The position numbers and the translations under genes are program-made. A stretch of 57,627 nt of DNA from Bacteroidales bacterium. GTDB taxonomy: Bacteria; Bacteroidota; Bacteroidia; Bacteroidales; ML635J-15. Below are positions 20,270 to 53,622 of the stretch, in pieces. The first letter of the stretch is position 1. Each line of letters starts with the position of its first letter. The stretch covers positions 1-57,627 of the forward strand of contig JBKGYK010000004.1 in NCBI GenBank assembly GCA_046546095.1, given 5' to 3'. A model generated the notes under the pieces. The model was not told the DNA's origin, ran no database searches, and was given only the letters and a program-made list of their open reading frames with translations.

Positions 20270-21457
20270 ATGGCAAAAGAAAAATTTGAAAGAAACAAGC
20301 CGCATGTCAATATTGGTACCATTGGTCACGTTGACCACGGTAAAACTACACTGACCTCTGCGATTACCAAGATTCTGGCTAAAGATGGTTATGCCACAGA
20401 AGCCAGTTTCGATTCTATTGACAACGCTCCCGAAGAAAAAGAAAGAGGGATTACAATTAACTCAGCGCACGTAGAGTACGAAACCGCAAATCGTCACTAC
20501 GCACACGTTGACTGTCCGGGTCATGCCGACTATGTGAAAAACATGGTAACTGGTGCTGCTCAGATGGACGGTGCTATCCTCGTTGTAGCTGCTACTGATG
20601 GTCCGATGCCACAGACCCGTGAGCATATCCTGCTCGCTCGTCAGGTAAACGTACCTAAAATTGTGACCTTTCTCAATAAATGCGACCTTGTTGATGATGA
20701 AGAACTCCTCGAACTCGTTGATATGGAAGTTCGTGAACTCCTGAGCTTCTATGAATTCGAAGGTGACGATGCTCCGGTTATCCGTGGCTCTGCTCTTGCA
20801 GGTCTCAATGGAGAAGAAAGCGGTGAGAAAAATATCCGTGAACTTATGGCAGCTGTTGATGAGTGGATTCCCGTTCCTCCGCGTGACAATGAAAAACCAT
20901 TCCTGATGCCGGTTGAGGACGTATTCTCAATTACAGGACGTGGTACTGTTGCTACAGGCCGTATCGAAGCCGGTGTTGTTAACACTGGTGAAGAAGTTCA
21001 CCTTATAGGTCTGGGTGCAGAGCAACGTAAAACTGTTGTTACAGGTGTTGAGATGTTCCGTAAAATTCTTGATACCGGTGAAGCTGGTGATAACGTTGGT
21101 CTCTTGCTCCGTGGTGTAGACAAAAAAGAAATTAAACGTGGTATGGTATTGGCCAAACCAGGTTCAATTAAACCTCACACACATTTCAAAGCTGAGGTAT
21201 ATGTACTGAAAAAAGAAGAAGGTGGTCGTCACACCCCATTCCATAACAAATACCGTCCACAGTTCTATCTGCGTACAATGGATATTACCGGTGAGATTAC
21301 TCTGCCAGAGGGTGTTGAAATGGTAATGCCTGGTGATAACGTAACCATTGATGTTGATCTTATCTATCCTGTAGCTTGTAACGTAGGTCTGCGTTTCGCA
21401 ATCCGTGAAGGTGGACGTACCGTAGGTGCAGGTCAGATTATCGAAGTTGACGAGTAA
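20270..21457 (+). CDS. tuf: Elongation factor Tu
   Basis: 'GHVDHGKTT', 'RGITI', '[12 protein letters not shown]', 'GGRHTPF'. Confidence 0.99.
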
Positions 21458-42753: not shown

Positions 42754-43494
42754 ATGTCAGAACTGAAAGAAAAAATAAATAAAGACAGGCTGCCAAAGCA
42801 TATTGCCATAATTATGGACGGCAATGGCCGATGGGCAAAACAGCGTGGTCGTATGAGATTGCACGGGCATAAGGCCGGAGCAGGTGCTGTGAGGGAGGTA
42901 ACTGAGGCTTGTGCTGAACTGGGTGTGGAGCATCTTACTCTTTATGCTTTTTCAAGTGAAAACTGGAACCGGCCGGAACAGGAAGTTTCCGGTTTGATGA
43001 ATTTACTTGTTGATAAACTTGAAAAAGAGCTCAATACTCTGACAAAAAACAGTATCAGGTTGCGAACCATTGGAGATGTCAGTCAATTGCCTGGAAAAGT
43101 GCAGAGCAAACTACAGGATGTTGTCGAAAAAAGCAAAGACGGACAGCGCATGTGTCTCAACCTTGCACTCTCTTATTCCGGAAGATGGGATATTGTTCAG
43201 GCAAGCAGAAAAATTGCAGAGGATGTCAGGCAAGGAGAGTTGAGCGTAGAGGAAATCAATGATGAGAAATTCTCGCAATACCTGGATACCAGAGATATCC
43301 CGGACCCGGATTTTATGATTCGTACCAGCGGTGAACAGAGAATTAGTAATTACCTGTTGTTCCAGTTGGCTTATGCAGAATTGTATTTTACAGATATACT
43401 TTGGCCCGATTTTGATAAAAAAGCCCTTTACGAGGCAATCCTTGATTACCAGGGAAGAGAAAGACGATTTGGAAAAACTAGTGAACAATTGTAA
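42754..43494 (+). CDS. uppS: Undecaprenyl-diphosphate synthase (isoprenyl transferase)
   Basis: 'IIMDGNGRWA', 'FSSENW', 'RTSGEQRISNY', 'RERRFG'. Confidence 0.97.
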   Translation: MSELKEKINKDRLPKHIAIIMDGNGRWAKQRGRMRLHGHKAGAGAVREVTEACAELGVEHLTLYAFSSENWNRPEQEVSGLMNLLVDKLEKELNTLTKNSIRLRTIGDVSQLPGKVQSKLQDVVEKSKDGQRMCLNLALSYSGRWDIVQASRKIAEDVRQGELSVEEINDEKFSQYLDTRDIPDPDFMIRTSGEQRISNYLLFQLAYAELYFTDILWPDFDKKALYEAILDYQGRERRFGKTSEQL

Positions 43495-43505
43495 GCGTGG
43501 ACGGA

Positions 43506-45986
43506 ATGAAGAAATTCTTTTTTAGCATAGTAGTACTTGTATCAATAACTTCAGCCAGTTTGGCGCAGGTATCTTTGACAGACGAATTAACAAAAATTAA
43601 TTACGACAACCCAAAAGAATATGTGATTGGGGGAGTTGAAGTCACTGGAATTAATCACCTTGACCACTCCGTGATCATACACCTTTCCGGTTTGCAGGTA
43701 GGTGATACCATTAGTGTACCGGGCGAAGAGATCACTTCTGCAGTAGAAAATCTCTGGGAACAGGGACTGTTTTCTGATGTGGAAATTGTTGCCGACAGAA
43801 TTGTTAATCAGCAGGTCTTTCTAAATCTTAAACTGGAGGAACGACCCCGCTTGTCAAAATTTACCTTCAACGGTGTAAAAAAACGCGAAGCCGACGATCT
43901 GCGTGAAAACCTGAAACTGACAAAGGGATCTCAGGTAACTGAAAACCTTCTCATGAATATCAATGCAGGTGTGAAGCGATATTTTGTTGATAAGGGCTTC
44001 CTGAATGTGTCTGTTGATGTACAACAGGAGAAGGATACTACCATGACAAACAATGTTATCCTTACCATCAACGTCAACAAGGGAGAAAGGATAAAAATTG
44101 ACAATCTTATCCTCCAGGGCAATGAGCATTTGTCAGATTTCAAAATTAAACGGGCAATGAAAGAAACAAAGGAAAAAGCCTGGTACAATGTTTTTAAATC
44201 TTCTAAATTTATCAGCAAAGATTTTAGGGACGATAAAAAAGCAGTGATTAAAAAATACAATGAAGAAGGATTCCGTGATGCCCGTATTATCAAAGATTCA
44301 ATTTGGAAAAATGACGATAACAGCATTAACCTGAAGCTTGTTATTGATGAAGGAAATAAATACTATTTCAGAGAGATTGACTGGATAGGAAACACAAAAT
44401 ATAACAACGAACAGCTCACCCGTGCTCTTGCCATTGAGCGTGGGGATGTGTATAACCAACAACTACTTGACGAACGACTCATGGGCGAGAATTCCGTTTT
44501 TTCACTATATCAGGACAATGGCTATCTGTTTTCCAATATTACACCTGTTGAGGTCAATGTGGAAGGTGATTCCATCGACCTTGAAATGCAGATATATGAA
44601 GGGAAACAGGCCAAAATTAACGAAGTGACAATCAATGGAAATACACGAACCAATGATCACGTGGTCCTTCGGGAGATCAGAACCCGCCCGGGTGATCTCT
44701 ATAAACGCTCAGATATTCAACGTACCATCAGAGAGCTTGCTCAGCTTGGGTATTTTGATCCGGAAAAACTGAATGTGGATTTTGAGCCGGATCCGGAAAA
44801 AGGCGAGGTTGACCTTGAATATATTGTTGAAGAAAAACCTTCCGATCAGATAGAGTTGAGCGGTGGTTATGGTGCCGGCATGATTGTGGGAACACTTGGG
44901 CTCACCTTTAATAACTTCTCATTACAAAATGTTTTTAATCCCTCGGCTTACAGACCATTGCCCGCCGGTGACGGACAGAGACTCAGCCTGAGAGCACAGG
45001 CCAGTGGCCCATATTATCAGAATTACAGCTTTTCTTTTGTTGAACCATGGCTTGGAGGACGTAAACCCAATTCACTATCGGTTTCTGTCTATAATTCACG
45101 ACAGACATACGGCTCCGATAGTACCGCTCAAAAGTTTATTGTCACGGGTGCCTCTGCAGGCCTCGGCCAGCGTCTCGAGTGGCCTGATGACTTTTTTACG
45201 CTTTATACAGCACTCGGATACAAACATTACAATATTTATCAGTGGTCTGGCTTTATTTATGATGACGGTACGTCTAACAACATCAACTTTACTGCCGATC
45301 TCGGGCGCTCCAGCAGCGGACCCAACCCCATTTTCCCAACACGGGGCAGCGACATGAATCTTTCTGTGGAACTGACTCCACCATTTTCATTGCTGGGTGA
45401 TAAAGACTATTCGGGAATGTCACCGCAGGAAAAATATAACTGGATTGAATATCATAAATGGAAATTCAAAGGTGATTGGTTTACTACCCTGCTTGGTTCT
45501 AAAGAAGGTGGAAGCAGAGCACTTGTGCTGCACTCCAAATTCGAATTTGGATTCCTGGCATTTTACAACAGTGATGTGGGACCATCACCATTTGAAGGTT
45601 TCCAGCTTGGTGGCGATGGATTGTACGGATATAACCTGTACGGACGGGAAACTGTGGGATTGAGAGGTTATACCAACAATTCACTCACACCCTCTGACGG
45701 TGGAAATCTTTACAATAAGTTTAGCCTGGAGTTACGATATCCACTTTCTCTGAATCCAACGGCTACTTTTTACGGCCTTGCCTTTATTGAAGGCGGAAAT
45801 GCCTGGTATGATTTCAACAATTATAATCCCTTTGACTTAAAACGCTCAGCCGGCTTTGGTATCAGAGTTTATATGCCTATGATTGGCATGCTGGGTGTCG
45901 ACTGGGGATATGGATTCGATGAAATTCATGGAAAAACCGGGGTGAACGGATCTCAATTCCATTTTGTTATTGGTCAGCAATTCTAA
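43506..45986 (+). CDS. bamA: Outer membrane protein assembly factor BamA
   Basis: 5 POTRA domains ('INGNTRTNDHVVLRE'); 'LRGY' motif; C-terminal 'FHFVIGQQF'. Confidence 0.96.
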   Translation: MKKFFFSIVVLVSITSASLAQVSLTDELTKINYDNPKEYVIGGVEVTGINHLDHSVIIHLSGLQVGDTISVPGEEITSAVENLWEQGLFSDVEIVADRIVNQQVFLNLKLEERPRLSKFTFNGVKKREADDLRENLKLTKGSQVTENLLMNINAGVKRYFVDKGFLNVSVDVQQEKDTTMTNNVILTINVNKGERIKIDNLILQGNEHLSDFKIKRAMKETKEKAWYNVFKSSKFISKDFRDDKKAVIKKYNEEGFRDARIIKDSIWKNDDNSINLKLVIDEGNKYYFREIDWIGNTKYNNEQLTRALAIERGDVYNQQLLDERLMGENSVFSLYQDNGYLFSNITPVEVNVEGDSIDLEMQIYEGKQAKINEVTINGNTRTNDHVVLREIRTRPGDLYKRSDIQRTIRELAQLGYFDPEKLNVDFEPDPEKGEVDLEYIVEEKPSDQIELSGGYGAGMIVGTLGLTFNNFSLQNVFNPSAYRPLPAGDGQRLSLRAQASGPYYQNYSFSFVEPWLGGRKPNSLSVSVYNSRQTYGSDSTAQKFIVTGASAGLGQRLEWPDDFFTLYTALGYKHYNIYQWSGFIYDDGTSNNINFTADLGRSSSGPNPIFPTRGSDMNLSVELTPPFSLLGDKDYSGMSPQEKYNWIEYHKWKFKGDWFTTLLGSKEGGSRALVLHSKFEFGFLAFYNSDVGPSPFEGFQLGGDGLYGYNLYGRETVGLRGYTNNSLTPSDGGNLYNKFSLELRYPLSLNPTATFYGLAFIEGGNAWYDFNNYNPFDLKRSAGFGIRVYMPMIGMLGVDWGYGFDEIHGKTGVNGSQFHFVIGQQF

Positions 45987-45997
45987 TTTATTAATTT

Positions 45998-46013
45998 TGG
46001 CCTGTTATTTGCA
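45998..46013 (+). promoter_or_regulatory. Sigma54-type -24/-12 promoter upstream of skp
   Basis: TGGCCT-GTTAT-TTGCA; GG-N10-GC spacing; does not match TAnnTTTG. Confidence 0.55.
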
Positions 46014-46046
46014 GATAGATAGTTCTGAAACAAAAACCTTAACATT

Positions 46047-46559
46047 ATGAAAAAACTTGTAATAATATTATCAGTCATCTTTGCTTCAACAGGCTTATTT
46101 GCACAAAAATATGCTTACGTTGATACTGATTACGTCATGAACAATATCCCTACTTATGAAACTGCACAGCAACAGTTGAACGAATTGTCCGAGCAGTGGA
46201 AAGGGGAAATTGATGAAATGAAAGGTGAAATCGAAAAAATGTATGAAGACTTTAAATCAGAAAAAGTTTTCCTTACAGACGAGTTGAAAGCAAAACGAGA
46301 AGAGGAAATTATCCGGAAAGAAAAAGAAATGCGGCAATTGCAGCAAGAATATTTCGGGCGAGAAGGCTTGTTATTCGAGAAACGCAAAGAATTGCTTAAA
46401 CCGATTCAGGATGATATCTTTAATGCCGTGAAAGAAATCGCTCAGGAGGGGAATTATGCTGTTATCTTTGATACAGCCAATAGCATGAATATGCTTTATA
46501 CTGACCCAAAATATGATAAGAGCGATGATGTGCTCCGAAAATTGGGCTACAAAAATTAA
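46047..46559 (+). CDS. skp: OmpH/Skp periplasmic chaperone (copy 1)
   Basis: 'QKYAYVDTDY', coiled coil, 'KPIQDDIFNAVKEIA', 'YDKSDDVL'. Confidence 0.93.
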   Translation: MKKLVIILSVIFASTGLFAQKYAYVDTDYVMNNIPTYETAQQQLNELSEQWKGEIDEMKGEIEKMYEDFKSEKVFLTDELKAKREEEIIRKEKEMRQLQQEYFGREGLLFEKRKELLKPIQDDIFNAVKEIAQEGNYAVIFDTANSMNMLYTDPKYDKSDDVLRKLGYKN

Positions 46560-46604
46560 TTGTTAACTTTGCATAATAGTAGAAATTTAAACAAAAAACA
46601 GAAT

Positions 46605-47114
46605 ATGATGAAACGCATTGGATTATTGATGGCACTTGCACTCTTGCTAAGTAGTGCCGCTGGCAGTTTTGCACAGAAAGCCGAATACGGATATGTAAAA
46701 GTAGAAGACATTTTCAAAGAAATGCCGGAACGTACACAGGCAGAAAAGCAAATTACCGAGTATTCTAAACAACTGGAAAATCAGTTACAAACCATGAATG
46801 CTGAGTTTGAAAAGAAATACCAGGAGTATGAAGAAAATTATGAGACCTGGGGTACTTCTGTAAGAAGTGATAAAGAAATGGAGATTCAGCAACTCCAGCA
46901 GAGAATCCAGGGATTTCAGCAAAGCGCACAATCAGACCTGCAGGAAAAAGAACAGGAATTGCTGAAACCCATCTATGAGAAAATCAGGACTGCAATTAAG
47001 GATGTTGGTGATGAAGAGGGGTATACTTACATATATGATGCCTCAATGTTGCTGTACAAATCTGATGATAGTAATGACCTGACAGATAAGGTTAAAACCA
47101 AGCTTGGTCTGTAA
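46605..47114 (+). CDS. skp: OmpH/Skp periplasmic chaperone (copy 2)
   Basis: 'YGYVKVEDIF', 'LLKPIYEKI', 'YTYIYD', 'DLTDKVKTKLGL'; own -7 element TAACTTTG at 46564-46571. Confidence 0.92.
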   Translation: MMKRIGLLMALALLLSSAAGSFAQKAEYGYVKVEDIFKEMPERTQAEKQITEYSKQLENQLQTMNAEFEKKYQEYEENYETWGTSVRSDKEMEIQQLQQRIQGFQQSAQSDLQEKEQELLKPIYEKIRTAIKDVGDEEGYTYIYDASMLLYKSDDSNDLTDKVKTKLGL

Positions 47115-47133
47115 TTAATGAAATTATGTAGAG

Positions 47134-47172
47134 AAAGGCCATTCGCTGCTTAGCGGATGGTCTTTTTTTTTT
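47134..47172 (+). terminator. Intrinsic terminator after skp-skp
   Basis: aaaggccattcgct-gctt-agcggatggtcttt followed by a long T-run. Confidence 0.85.
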
Positions 47173-47183
47173 ATTTTTACATT

Positions 47184-47993
47184 ATGAGTAAGTCTGAAGC
47201 ACCCATTGGTATGTTCGATTCCGGCCTGGGCGGATTGTCCGTCTGGAAGGTTGTGTCTGCCTTTCTTCCCCGTGAATCATTTATCTATTATGCAGACAGT
47301 AAATTTGCACCATATGGTTGCCGGAGCAGGGAAGAAATCATTGAGCGCAGCATGTGTATTACCGATTTGCTTTTAAAGGATGGTGCAAAACTGATCGTTG
47401 TTGCCTGCAATACGGCCACTGCAGCAGCCATTGATTTTCTCAGAGAATCCCATCCTGATATTCCCTTTGTGGGAATGGAACCTGCAATTAAACCGGCTTC
47501 CCTGCTCTCTGAAACAGGAAATGTGGGAGTACTTGCAACACAAGGCACATTCAGTGGAGCCTTGTTTAAACGAAACAGGGAAAAATACAATCCTTATGTA
47601 AAAATTCATTTCAGAGAAGGTGAAGGTCTTGTTGAGCTTGCAGAAAAAAACATGGTCAACTCTGCAAAAGCTGAACGCCTGCTTAGAAAATATATCGAAC
47701 CTATGATGCAGGCTCAGGTTGACCAACTTGTGCTGGGATGTACACATTATCCTTTGTTTATCCCTTTAATCCGCAGAATTACCGGAGATTCAATGAAAAT
47801 CATCGATCCCGCCGATGCCATAGCACGACGCACGAAAGACCTGCTCATCCAACACAGGAAAATCAATATAAATCAGGATGCGGGAAATTCTGTTTTTTTT
47901 ACCAATGGGAAATTACAAAATCTGGAAAGAATGCTGATATCTCTCGTGCCGGATCAGAAAAAGTCAAATATCTCACATTTCTGTTGCGATTAA
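47184..47993 (+). CDS. murI: Glutamate racemase
   Basis: 'FDSGLGGLSV', 'VACNTAT', 'LGCTHYP'. Confidence 0.97.
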   Translation: MSKSEAPIGMFDSGLGGLSVWKVVSAFLPRESFIYYADSKFAPYGCRSREEIIERSMCITDLLLKDGAKLIVVACNTATAAAIDFLRESHPDIPFVGMEPAIKPASLLSETGNVGVLATQGTFSGALFKRNREKYNPYVKIHFREGEGLVELAEKNMVNSAKAERLLRKYIEPMMQAQVDQLVLGCTHYPLFIPLIRRITGDSMKIIDPADAIARRTKDLLIQHRKININQDAGNSVFFTNGKLQNLERMLISLVPDQKKSNISHFCCD

Positions 47994-51482: not shown

Positions 51483-51527
51483 ATCAGCATTGACAGCCAA
51501 TCTGCCTTTTTGTCACATTATCTTTGG

Positions 51528-51543
51528 TGGCACAACCTTTGCA
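51528..51543 (+). promoter_or_regulatory. Sigma54-type -24/-12 promoter upstream of htpG
   Basis: TGGCAC-AACCT-TTGCA matches the TGGCAC-N5-TTGCW consensus. Confidence 0.65.
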
Positions 51544-51573: not shown

Positions 51574-53622
51574 ATGCGCAAAGGTAAAATAGATGTCACC
51601 AGTGAAAACATTTTTCCTGTGATCAAAAAGTTTCTGTATTCAGACCACGAAATTTTTCTCAGGGAGATTGTCTCCAATGCTGTGGATGCTACCCAGAAAC
51701 TCAAAACACTTGCCAAACGAGGCGAGTTTGATCAGCAAATGCCGGAAGAAACAATTCGTGTGAAAGTTGACAAGGATGCAGGGACAATCACCGTAAGTGA
51801 TTTTGGTATAGGAATGACAGAAGAAGAAGTGATTAAGTATCTGAATCAGATTGCCTTCTCAAGTGCTGAAGAATTCCTGGAAAAATATAAAGATGATGCC
51901 AATGCGATCATTGGTCATTTCGGACTGGGTTTTTTCTCAAGCTTTATGGTTAGTGAGAAGGTTGAAGTGGTAACAAAATCCTGGAAAAAAGACGCAAAAG
52001 CTGTTCGCTGGGAATGCTCCGGTAACCCGGAATATGCTATTTCTGATGCAGAAAGAGAGCATATTGGTACCGATGTGATCATGCATATTGATGAAGAAAA
52101 CAAAGAATTTCTGGAAGATTCAGAAATTCAGACACTCCTTGATAAATACTGTAAGTTTTTGCCTGTACCCATTGCTTTTGGTAAGAAAAAAGAATGGAAA
52201 GATGATCAGGAAATAGAGACAGATGAAGACAATATAGTCAACAATACAAATCCTGCATGGACACAACAACCTGCTGACCTTAAGGATGAGGATTACAAGG
52301 CTTTTTACAGAGAACTTTATCCTACTTTGTTTGATGAGCCGCTCTTCCATATCCATTTGAATGTGGATTACCCTTTCAATCTGTCCGGTATCCTGTATTT
52401 TCCAAAAATCCGGCAAAATATTGACATACAAAGGAATAAAATTCAATTGTACAGCAATCAGGTATTTGTAACCGATTCTGTGGAAGGCATTGTACCTGAA
52501 TTCCTCACCTTGCTGCATGGTGTGATTGATTCACCCGACATCCCCCTGAATATTTCACGCTCATATCTGCAAAGTGACAGAAATGTCAAGAAAATCTCAG
52601 GACATATCACCAAAAAAGTTGCGGATAAGTTGCAGGAAATCTTTAAAACTGATAGAAAGCAGTTTGAAGAGAAATGGGATGATCTCAAAGTGTTTATCGA
52701 ATATGGCATGATTTCGGAAGAAAAGTTTTACGAGCGTGCCAAAGACTTTACTTTGCTGAAAAATTCAGAAGGCAAATATTTCACGCTTGAAGAATACAAA
52801 AATATCATTAAAGAAAATCAAACCGATAAGGACAAGCAGTTGATTTATCTCTATGCCACGGATAAGGATGCACAATATACCTATATCAATGATGCCAATG
52901 ACAAGGGATACGATGTACTTCTTATGGATGGACAGATCGATGCACATTTTGTGAATCACCTGGAAACGAAACTTGAAAACACGCGTTTTGTAAGGGTTGA
53001 TTCTGATGTAGTTGATAAGCTGATTAACAAAGATGAGAAAAAAGAAAGCAAGTTAAAGCCCAAAGAAGAAAACAGACTTACATCTGTGTTTGAATCTCAG
53101 GTGCCCTCTGAAGGCAATTTTATTGTAGCTCCCGAACCACTGGACGAGAAGGCCATGCCTGTGATGATTACCCAGGAAGAGTTTATGCGCAGAATGAAAG
53201 ACATGTCAAAGCTCAGCGGTGGTATGTACGATAATCTGCCCGATTCATACAAACTGGTGGTCAATACCAATCACCCGTTGATCGGCAACATTAGCAGCCA
53301 GGCAAATGAATCTCTGGGTAAAGATCTGGATAAACTGGAAAGCGAAATCGAAGAGCTTAACACAGAAATAAACAAGCTGGATGCTGCACAAAAAGAGAAG
53401 AAAGAAGAGGAAGTAAAACAGGAAGAAAAGGATAAGTTGAAAGATCTGCAGGATACCCTCGGGAAAAAGCAGGAAAACAAAAGAGAAAAACTGCAGTCAT
53501 TTGGCAGAGATACAAAACTTGTCAAACAACTTGTTGACCTTGCACTCTTATCCAACAATATGCTGCGCGGGGAGGCACTGAATAAATTTGTGCGCAGATC
53601 CATTGATTTGATAGAGGACTAA
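51574..53622 (+). CDS. htpG: Molecular chaperone HtpG (Hsp90)
   Basis: 'EIFLREIVSNAVDA', 'DFGIGM', 'IIGHFGLGFFS', 'GVIDSPDIPLNISRS'. Confidence 0.97.
   Translation: MRKGKIDVTSENIFPVIKKFLYSDHEIFLREIVSNAVDATQKLKTLAKRGEFDQQMPEETIRVKVDKDAGTITVSDFGIGMTEEEVIKYLNQIAFSSAEEFLEKYKDDANAIIGHFGLGFFSSFMVSEKVEVVTKSWKKDAKAVRWECSGNPEYAISDAEREHIGTDVIMHIDEENKEFLEDSEIQTLLDKYCKFLPVPIAFGKKKEWKDDQEIETDEDNIVNNTNPAWTQQPADLKDEDYKAFYRELYPTLFDEPLFHIHLNVDYPFNLSGILYFPKIRQNIDIQRNKIQLYSNQVFVTDSVEGIVPEFLTLLHGVIDSPDIPLNISRSYLQSDRNVKKISGHITKKVADKLQEIFKTDRKQFEEKWDDLKVFIEYGMISEEKFYERAKDFTLLKNSEGKYFTLEEYKNIIKENQTDKDKQLIYLYATDKDAQYTYINDANDKGYDVLLMDGQIDAHFVNHLETKLENTRFVRVDSDVVDKLINKDEKKESKLKPKEENRLTSVFESQVPSEGNFIVAPEPLDEKAMPVMITQEEFMRRMKDMSKLSGGMYDNLPDSYKLVVNTNHPLIGNISSQANESLGKDLDKLESEIEELNTEINKLDAAQKEKKEEEVKQEEKDKLKDLQDTLGKKQENKREKLQSFGRDTKLVKQLVDLALLSNNMLRGEALNKFVRRSIDLIED

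Follow-up and report, generated by a model that had tools for sequence, protein, structure and literature searches.

In Escherichia coli, sigma-E promoters lie in the bamA-skp-lpxD region, and PspF together with sigma-54 constitutes an envelope stress system. The closest described counterpart of the locus analyzed here is in Flavobacterium psychrophilum, where primary 5′ ends were mapped and one promoter motif, SM4, corresponds to the −24/−12 elements of sigma-54 (Guerin et al. 2021, ISME Commun 1:33; PMC9723704). Promoters of the SM4 class (Table 2A of that paper) precede skp, htpG, dnaK, grpE-dnaJ, groESL, clpB, lon, and genes for a thioredoxin and a muramidase. The skp start (THC0290_0618; Table S2 of PMC9723704) is at 753817, with a posterior of 0.999 for SM4/Sig54 and a 5′ UTR of 6 nt. 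Its promoter sequence, AggtcaacaattttaattatatTTGGCACGATAGTTGAATTTaacattatacgcttatgaa, includes ggtcaacaattttaattatatTTGGCACGATAGTTGAATTT and runs from the bamA C-terminus and stop codon straight into the motif; transcription begins 14 nt past the G of TTG. Published SM4 sites at groES (TTGGCATAATTTCTGA), clpB (TTGGAATAACAATTGA), lon (ATGGCACAATCCTTGA), and the muramidase gene (TTGGCATAGCTTTTGT) have a relaxed −12 element, as do the sites of the lineage considered below.

A computational survey of sigma-54 promoters (PLoS One 2025; PMC12316311) found those of GroEL/ES, GrpE, DnaJ/K, HSP90, Clp, and Lon to be enriched in Bacteroidota, with Bacteroidia among them. It also cites sigma-54 dependence of GrpE and GroES in Bacteroides thetaiotaomicron; its main text makes no mention of Skp/OmpH or BamA. 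Francke et al. (2011; PMC3162934) contains nothing on Bacteroidetes, skp, or htpG, and our literature search returned nothing direct on RpoN and start sites in B. thetaiotaomicron. A sigma-54 chaperone regulon that includes a skp promoter is already published (PMC9723704), and its heat-shock part has been extended to Bacteroidia (PMC12316311). Because the concept is in print, the DNA analyzed here contributes an orthologous example from an uncultured member of the Bacteroidales, together with a comparative footprint, and no new mechanism.

The bamA-skp junction and its transcription unit

The window (the whole stretch of 57,627 nucleotides that was analyzed) corresponds to contig C4 in an assembly of 2.94 Mb (42.6% G+C, 97.6% complete) whose nearest named relatives are metagenome-assembled genomes of uncultured Bacteroidales/Bacteroidota. 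The genes of interest follow one another in the order uppS, bamA, skp1, skp2, and then murI (Table 1). Immediately behind bamA, at 45998–46013, is TGGCCTGTTATTTGCA, in which the TGGC-N7-TTGCA (GG-N10-GC) frame is exact and points toward skp; it begins 12 nt past the bamA stop codon and ends 33 nt ahead of the skp ATG. The first-pass annotation had placed a sigma-54-type promoter at this position and had reported the same frame before htpG; both matches were confirmed, and the one at htpG (TGGCACAACCTTTGCA) is a perfect match to the textbook sigma-54 consensus. Our analysis makes it very likely that the element is an internal sigma-54 (RpoN) promoter, located directly after the bamA stop and belonging to a wider sigma-54 regulon.

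Table 1. Features of the window and sigma-54 activator genes of the same assembly
Feature	Position	Strand	Remarks
uppS	42754–43494		
bamA	43497–45986	+	829 aa, 5 POTRA repeats; stop TAA 45984–45986
TAATTTTG	45992–45999	+	perfect Bacteroidota sigma-A −7 box (TAnnTTTG); overlaps −24 element
−24 element TGGC	45998–46001	+	GG at 45999–46000; TTT directly before
−12 element TTGCA	46009–46013	+	G at 46011, C at 46012
Predicted transcription start	46022–46025	+	11–14 nt downstream of G 46011
skp1	46047–46559	+	OmpH family, 170 aa
TAACTTTG	46564–46571	+	perfect sigma-A type −7 box in skp1-skp2 spacer, read directly from the sequence
skp2	46605–47114	+	OmpH family
Intrinsic terminator	47130–47179	+	18-pair stem and T run; closes skp1-skp2 unit
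Inverted repeat TGACA-N15-TGTCA	51491–51515	+	just upstream of htpG −24 element
htpG sigma-54 promoter TGGCACAACCTTTGCA	51528–51543	+	30 nt ahead of ATG 51574
htpG	51574–53622		
Activator 1	contig C3 (L002 1027–2250)		receiver and AAA+ domains, no HTH/DNA-binding domain; loop GAFTSA
Activator 2	contig C12 (L003 1375–2712)		AAA+ domain and HTH_8, no receiver/regulatory domain; loop GSFTGA

Considered one at a time, tests of chance occurrence differ in what they say about the site. The exact pattern occurs three times in the whole window (both strands) against 0.81 expected, and at least three occurrences were seen in 5 of 100 shuffles, so this test alone is weak; the third match (20785–20800), absent from the first-pass annotation, falls within an open reading frame (20270–21457) and is most simply explained by chance. 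Within the approximately 3.5 kb of intergenic DNA in the window, two matches are present where about 0.03 would be expected from the density in the genome's genic DNA, a value of the same order of magnitude as the 0.02 estimated in the first pass. A matrix built from eight start-anchored SM4 sites of F. psychrophilum gives the skp site 14.0 bits. Chance produces scores of at least 14 bits at a rate of about 1.5 per 100 kb genome-wide, and upstream regions contain eight such sites in the sense orientation versus three in antisense, so the skp site by itself is only moderately convincing. Its −24 flank (TGGCCT) deviates from TGGCAC/T.

By analogy with the F. psychrophilum skp promoter and its 14-nt distance from the G of TTG to the mapped start, we infer that transcription would begin near 46022–46025, leaving a 5′ UTR of about 22–25 nt; the median reported for F. 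psychrophilum is 24 nt (PMC9723704). The sequence upstream of the −24 element is bamA coding DNA, in which no recognizable activator (enhancer) site was found.

No hairpin or terminator was detected in the bamA-skp spacer, nor was there an Rfam match, and the predicted RNA fold of 45975–46060 is less stable than that of shuffled sequence (z = +1.59); an RNA element or terminator in this spacer was rejected on the basis of the fold and the Rfam search. Since no terminator separates the two genes, read-through from bamA into skp is possible. The far end of the unit is marked by the intrinsic terminator behind skp2, in agreement with the proposed skp1-skp2 transcription unit. (Scans with a sigma-70 consensus are uninformative for Bacteroidota promoters, and only the terminator output of that analysis was used.)

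For skp2, the likely true start is the ATG at 46605, which is in the reading frame of the TTG listed at 46560. The perfect −7 box TAACTTTG is found approximately 34 nt ahead of this ATG, and on sequence grounds skp2 probably has its own housekeeping promoter as well. The terminator overlaps the listed murI start (47157), so the ATG at 47184 is the more likely start of that gene. This ATG is very near the T run of the terminator, and the murI leader is possibly short or absent, as has been reported for murI of F. psychrophilum.

Conservation at the junction

Eighty named loci from species representatives of the Bacteroidales yielded 79 distinct bamA-skp junctions, the window's own included. Of these 79, 47 have a sense-strand TGG-N8-TTG no more than 100 nt from the skp ATG. 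The same blocks set 4–7 or 9–12 nt apart were found in 0–2 junctions, and the antisense control gave 0–5; the expectation that the motif would be kept upstream of skp in relatives is thus borne out, with strict spacing and strand. Anchoring the search on TTGG alone recovered TTTG at one fixed downstream offset in 41–48 of 49 cases, so the two-block structure is not an artefact of the search. The block TTTGG[C/T]C[C/T]GTTATTTG[C/T]A is nearly invariant within the genus and both of its flanks diverge; the junction of Roseimarinus sediminis DSM 28824 reads GATGGTACAATAGTTGTA.

The base that follows TTG varies across the 47 orthologous sites (T in 21, C in 16, A in 9, and G in 1), and judging from these sequences conservation in this lineage does not extend to the canonical −12 C. 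Because of this variation the TTGCA model of the first-pass annotation is too strict.

In a wider sample, drawn from other orders of the class, 17 of the 29 skp loci match the pattern in the 130 nt that precede the skp ATG. Several of these matches lie between bamA and skp and a few within the last bamA codons, where they may be coincidental. The distribution of the skp promoter behind bamA points to an old origin, as many Bacteroidales, other orders of the class, and Flavobacterium would share it. The motif is nevertheless missing from the junction in 32 of the 79 species, many of which have a junction of 25–35 nt with no motif at all. Of 50 genomes, 48 have an rpoN gene, motif-less ones included; comparison of rpoN presence with the motif is therefore uninformative, and the skp promoter appears to be dispensable, and to be gained, lost, or moved easily.

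Several variants were seen at individual loci. Three skp loci of the class-level sample (L151, L156, and L174) have TTGCAC/T-N5-TTG at the promoter position (for example TTTGCACGATTGTTGA), and a fourth (L149) has TAGCAC-N5-TTG. In all four, T or A stands where the GG has its first G, and the remainder resembles the F. psychrophilum skp site; their −24 may be a decayed or variant element. Six other loci (L162, L170, L171, L173, L086, and L090) have a good TGGCA-N-TTTG motif within the last bamA codons, as in TTGGCATGAACTTTGAAC, which encodes ..IGMNFE... In a Salinivirgaceae-like set this embedded motif varies at synonymous sites, and it could be a promoter within the coding region or a coincidental result of codon choice. 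The TGGAAC or GGAAC seen in some relatives was also considered as an ECF-sigma element; this was rejected, since the AAC lacks conservation and the distance to the second block is 5 nt, not 16–17.

Sigma-54 machinery and quality-control promoters in the genome

The genome encodes a complete RpoN of 477 aa with activator-interacting, core-binding, and DNA-binding domains (PF00309, PF04963, and PF04552) and the RpoN box ARRTVAKYR, as well as two AAA+ enhancer-binding ATPases (Table 1), in both of which the GAFTGA-type loop is variant. The gene for activator 2 is followed directly by lptE (L003 2709–3221). Activator 1 has no DNA-binding domain and would therefore need no enhancer site. No RpoH was found in the 97.6% complete assembly; the best hits to TIGR02392 are two RpoD-like sigma factors with 156–160 bits, versus a cut-off of 323. 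No CIRCE element was found in the assembly.

Nine quality-control loci were considered: dnaK, grpE, groEL, htpG, clpB, a clpC-like gene, lon, htrA, and skp. TGGC-N7-TTG occurs within 150 nt upstream of six of them (dnaK, grpE-dnaJ, clpB, the clpC-like gene, htpG, and skp) compared with 27 of 1,547 upstream regions overall (P = 1.3e-9), and controls with a 6- or 8-nt spacer or on the antisense strand gave 0–1. When skp and htpG, which had prompted the hypothesis, are left out, four of seven loci are positive (P ~2e-6, a rough estimate, not computed by the tool). Matrix scores place htpG at 16.0 bits, dnaK at 14.3, and the clpC-like gene at 13.7, on either side of the value for skp. The predicted occurrence of the motif at other chaperone and protease genes is thus upheld for dnaK and clpB, and also for grpE-dnaJ and the clpC-like gene; only a weak match was found upstream of groEL, and none upstream of lon or htrA. 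The groEL gene starts at position 376 of its contig (C85), and the 375 nt upstream contain no open reading frame of at least 80 aa that could be groES, which may be elsewhere or have been missed; the weak sigma-54-like match there is ATGGCATAAAATTCGT.

Spacing is equally specific when all genes are considered. In sense upstream regions TTGGC-Nx-TTG has 16 sites at x = 7 versus 0–7 at the other spacings (x from 2 to 25). Among the genes behind these sites or the top matrix hits are grpE(-dnaJ), skp, dnaK, htpG, and those for an outer-membrane beta-barrel protein, three thioredoxin-like proteins, an N-acetylmuramoyl-alanine amidase, and many proteins with signal peptides, a set much like that of F. 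psychrophilum. A scan with the canonical TGGCAC-N5-TTGCW (GG and GC fixed, up to two mismatches) showed no such enrichment: 37 of 585 hits were intergenic (6.3%, versus 8.8% of the DNA being intergenic). The −12 part of that model is too strict for this lineage. Sigma-54 promoter scans in Bacteroidota should accordingly not require the −12 C, as the enrichment of TTGGC-N7-TTG is clear.

At htpG, a motif of the TGGCA[C/T]-N5-TTTG type was found at all 30 of the loci listed, which range from genus to order and include the genome's own, 47–110 nt ahead of the ATG; at two of these loci CGG or TGC replaces TGG. The inverted repeat just upstream of the window's htpG −24 element (Table 1) has counterparts in relatives, where TGACA/TGTCA-type repeats, often TGACA-N3-TGTCA, occupy the same place (htpG loci L120–L146). 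Within the genome itself, TGACA-type elements are found 35–50 nt upstream of the −24 element at htpG, dnaK, and grpE, and none is found upstream of skp and the other envelope genes. From its sequence and position, TGACA...TGTCA is a candidate binding site for a promoter-proximal activator of the cytoplasmic genes.

Interpretation and comparison with known systems

Other interpretations of the skp element were weighed. The overlapping TAATTTTG is perfect to the TAnnTTTG consensus of Bacteroidota (PMC9723704), and the TTT before the GG is kept in 41–47 of the 47 orthologous sites, so that skp might be transcribed from a housekeeping sigma-A promoter with a start near 46004, the sigma-54 frame being incidental. 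We consider this improbable, since the TA that a −7 box joined to the −24 element would need is kept in only 14 of the 47 sites, and the conserved block consists of the GG and a TTG at fixed spacing downstream; a −7 box leaves this second block, exactly 12 nt away, unexplained. The closest upstream TTTG (45963–45966) is 25 nt distant, versus the 19–21 nt required for a −33 element, and the mapped F. psychrophilum start fits sigma-54 geometry at a site where the published sequence has no TAnnTTTG (PMC9723704). In a weaker form of the same idea, sigma-A and sigma-54 promoters overlap and compete; TAATTTTG is possibly a second, housekeeping promoter of this kind.

TTTGG and TTTGC also resemble a direct repeat with a 12-bp period, and TTTGG-N7-TTTG could be the site of another DNA-binding protein, such as a response regulator bound to repeats about one helical turn apart, that modulates read-through or a nearby promoter. 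The lack of a conserved −12 C is in keeping with such a site, but relaxed −12 elements (TTGA and TTGT) are also present at start-anchored F. psychrophilum sites classed as sigma-54, and the motif family co-occurs with classic TGGCA[CT] sites of sigma-54 at htpG, dnaK, and the clpC-like gene. As strand and distance from start codons also fit a promoter, we regard a site for another protein as very improbable. The slimmest prospect is that the match is functionless and that all transcription of skp comes from a uppS-bamA-skp operon. The missing terminator, the failure of the exact pattern to be significantly over-represented in the window as a whole, and the many short, motif-less junctions are all compatible with this, but conservation that is specific for strand and spacing in 47 of 79 junctions argues strongly against it, as does the mapped start at the orthologous site in F. 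psychrophilum.

If the element is a sigma-54 promoter, the polymerase would bind its GG (45999–46000) and TTGC (46009–46012) as a closed complex, to be opened by one of the two AAA+ enhancer-binding proteins of the genome; the resulting skp1-skp2 mRNA would extend from about 46022–46025 to the terminator at 47130–47179. This transcription would depend on RpoN, and the inducing signal may be a stress. Because nothing terminates transcription between bamA and skp, the promoter would add a regulated, stress-responsive supply of periplasmic chaperone to that provided by read-through. Other members of the regulon would be htpG, dnaK, grpE-dnaJ, clpB, the clpC-like gene, and genes for thioredoxins, the cell-wall amidase, and many exported proteins. 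Such a regulon would stand in for the sigma-32 and sigma-E circuits in a lineage without RpoH. The first-pass annotation had proposed a sigma-54-dependent quality-control regulon spanning both compartments in place of RpoH/RpoE logic; the six positive loci of nine and the lack of RpoH and CIRCE in the assembly support that proposal, which is not new (PMC9723704), and they support the view that Bacteroidota without sigma-32 use sigma-54 for cytoplasmic heat shock as well as for some of their envelope stress response.

The distribution of TGACA-type elements suggests two arms of the regulon, fitting the two activator architectures. In one arm, cytoplasmic heat-shock genes (htpG, dnaK, and grpE) with the TGACA...TGTCA site may be served by the HTH-bearing activator encoded beside lptE; in the other, envelope genes (skp and those for outer-membrane proteins, thioredoxins, and the amidase) may have no enhancer and be served from solution by activator 1. 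The second arm, if it exists, would account for a sigma-54 promoter situated directly behind a coding region. As a general account of Bacteroidia, in which sigma-54 tolerates a relaxed −12 (TTG-N, not TTGC) and the regulon is split in this way, the scheme is speculative and on balance rather unlikely.

The locus is most like that of F. psychrophilum. Both have the order bamA, skp, a second ompH gene, and murI, with the motif immediately after the bamA stop and in a TTGG-N8-TTG frame, and F. psychrophilum BamA ends in …GQQF, like the window's ggtcagcaattctaa. The two regulons share htpG, dnaK, grpE-dnaJ, clpB, a thioredoxin, a cell-wall hydrolase, and exported proteins, and the pairing of an activator gene with lptE is also common to both (THC0290_0733/0732 in F. 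psychrophilum). The organisms belong to different orders, Bacteroidales here and Flavobacteriales there. The F. psychrophilum start has been mapped, whereas that in the window is predicted from the sequence. The spacer and the 5′ UTR are longer here (a predicted 22–25 nt, approximately, versus 6 nt), the −12 element is TTGC rather than TTGA, a sigma-A −7 box overlaps the −24 element here and not in F. psychrophilum, and the genome encodes two activators versus three.

The resemblance to E. coli is one of arrangement: in both, a promoter within an envelope-biogenesis cluster would give skp extra, stress-responsive transcription, and activator 2, consisting of an AAA+ domain and an HTH alone, has a PspF-like architecture. 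In E. coli, however, skp is controlled by a cascade of ECF sigma and anti-sigma factors, whereas here the same role would fall to sigma-54 and an ATPase activator.
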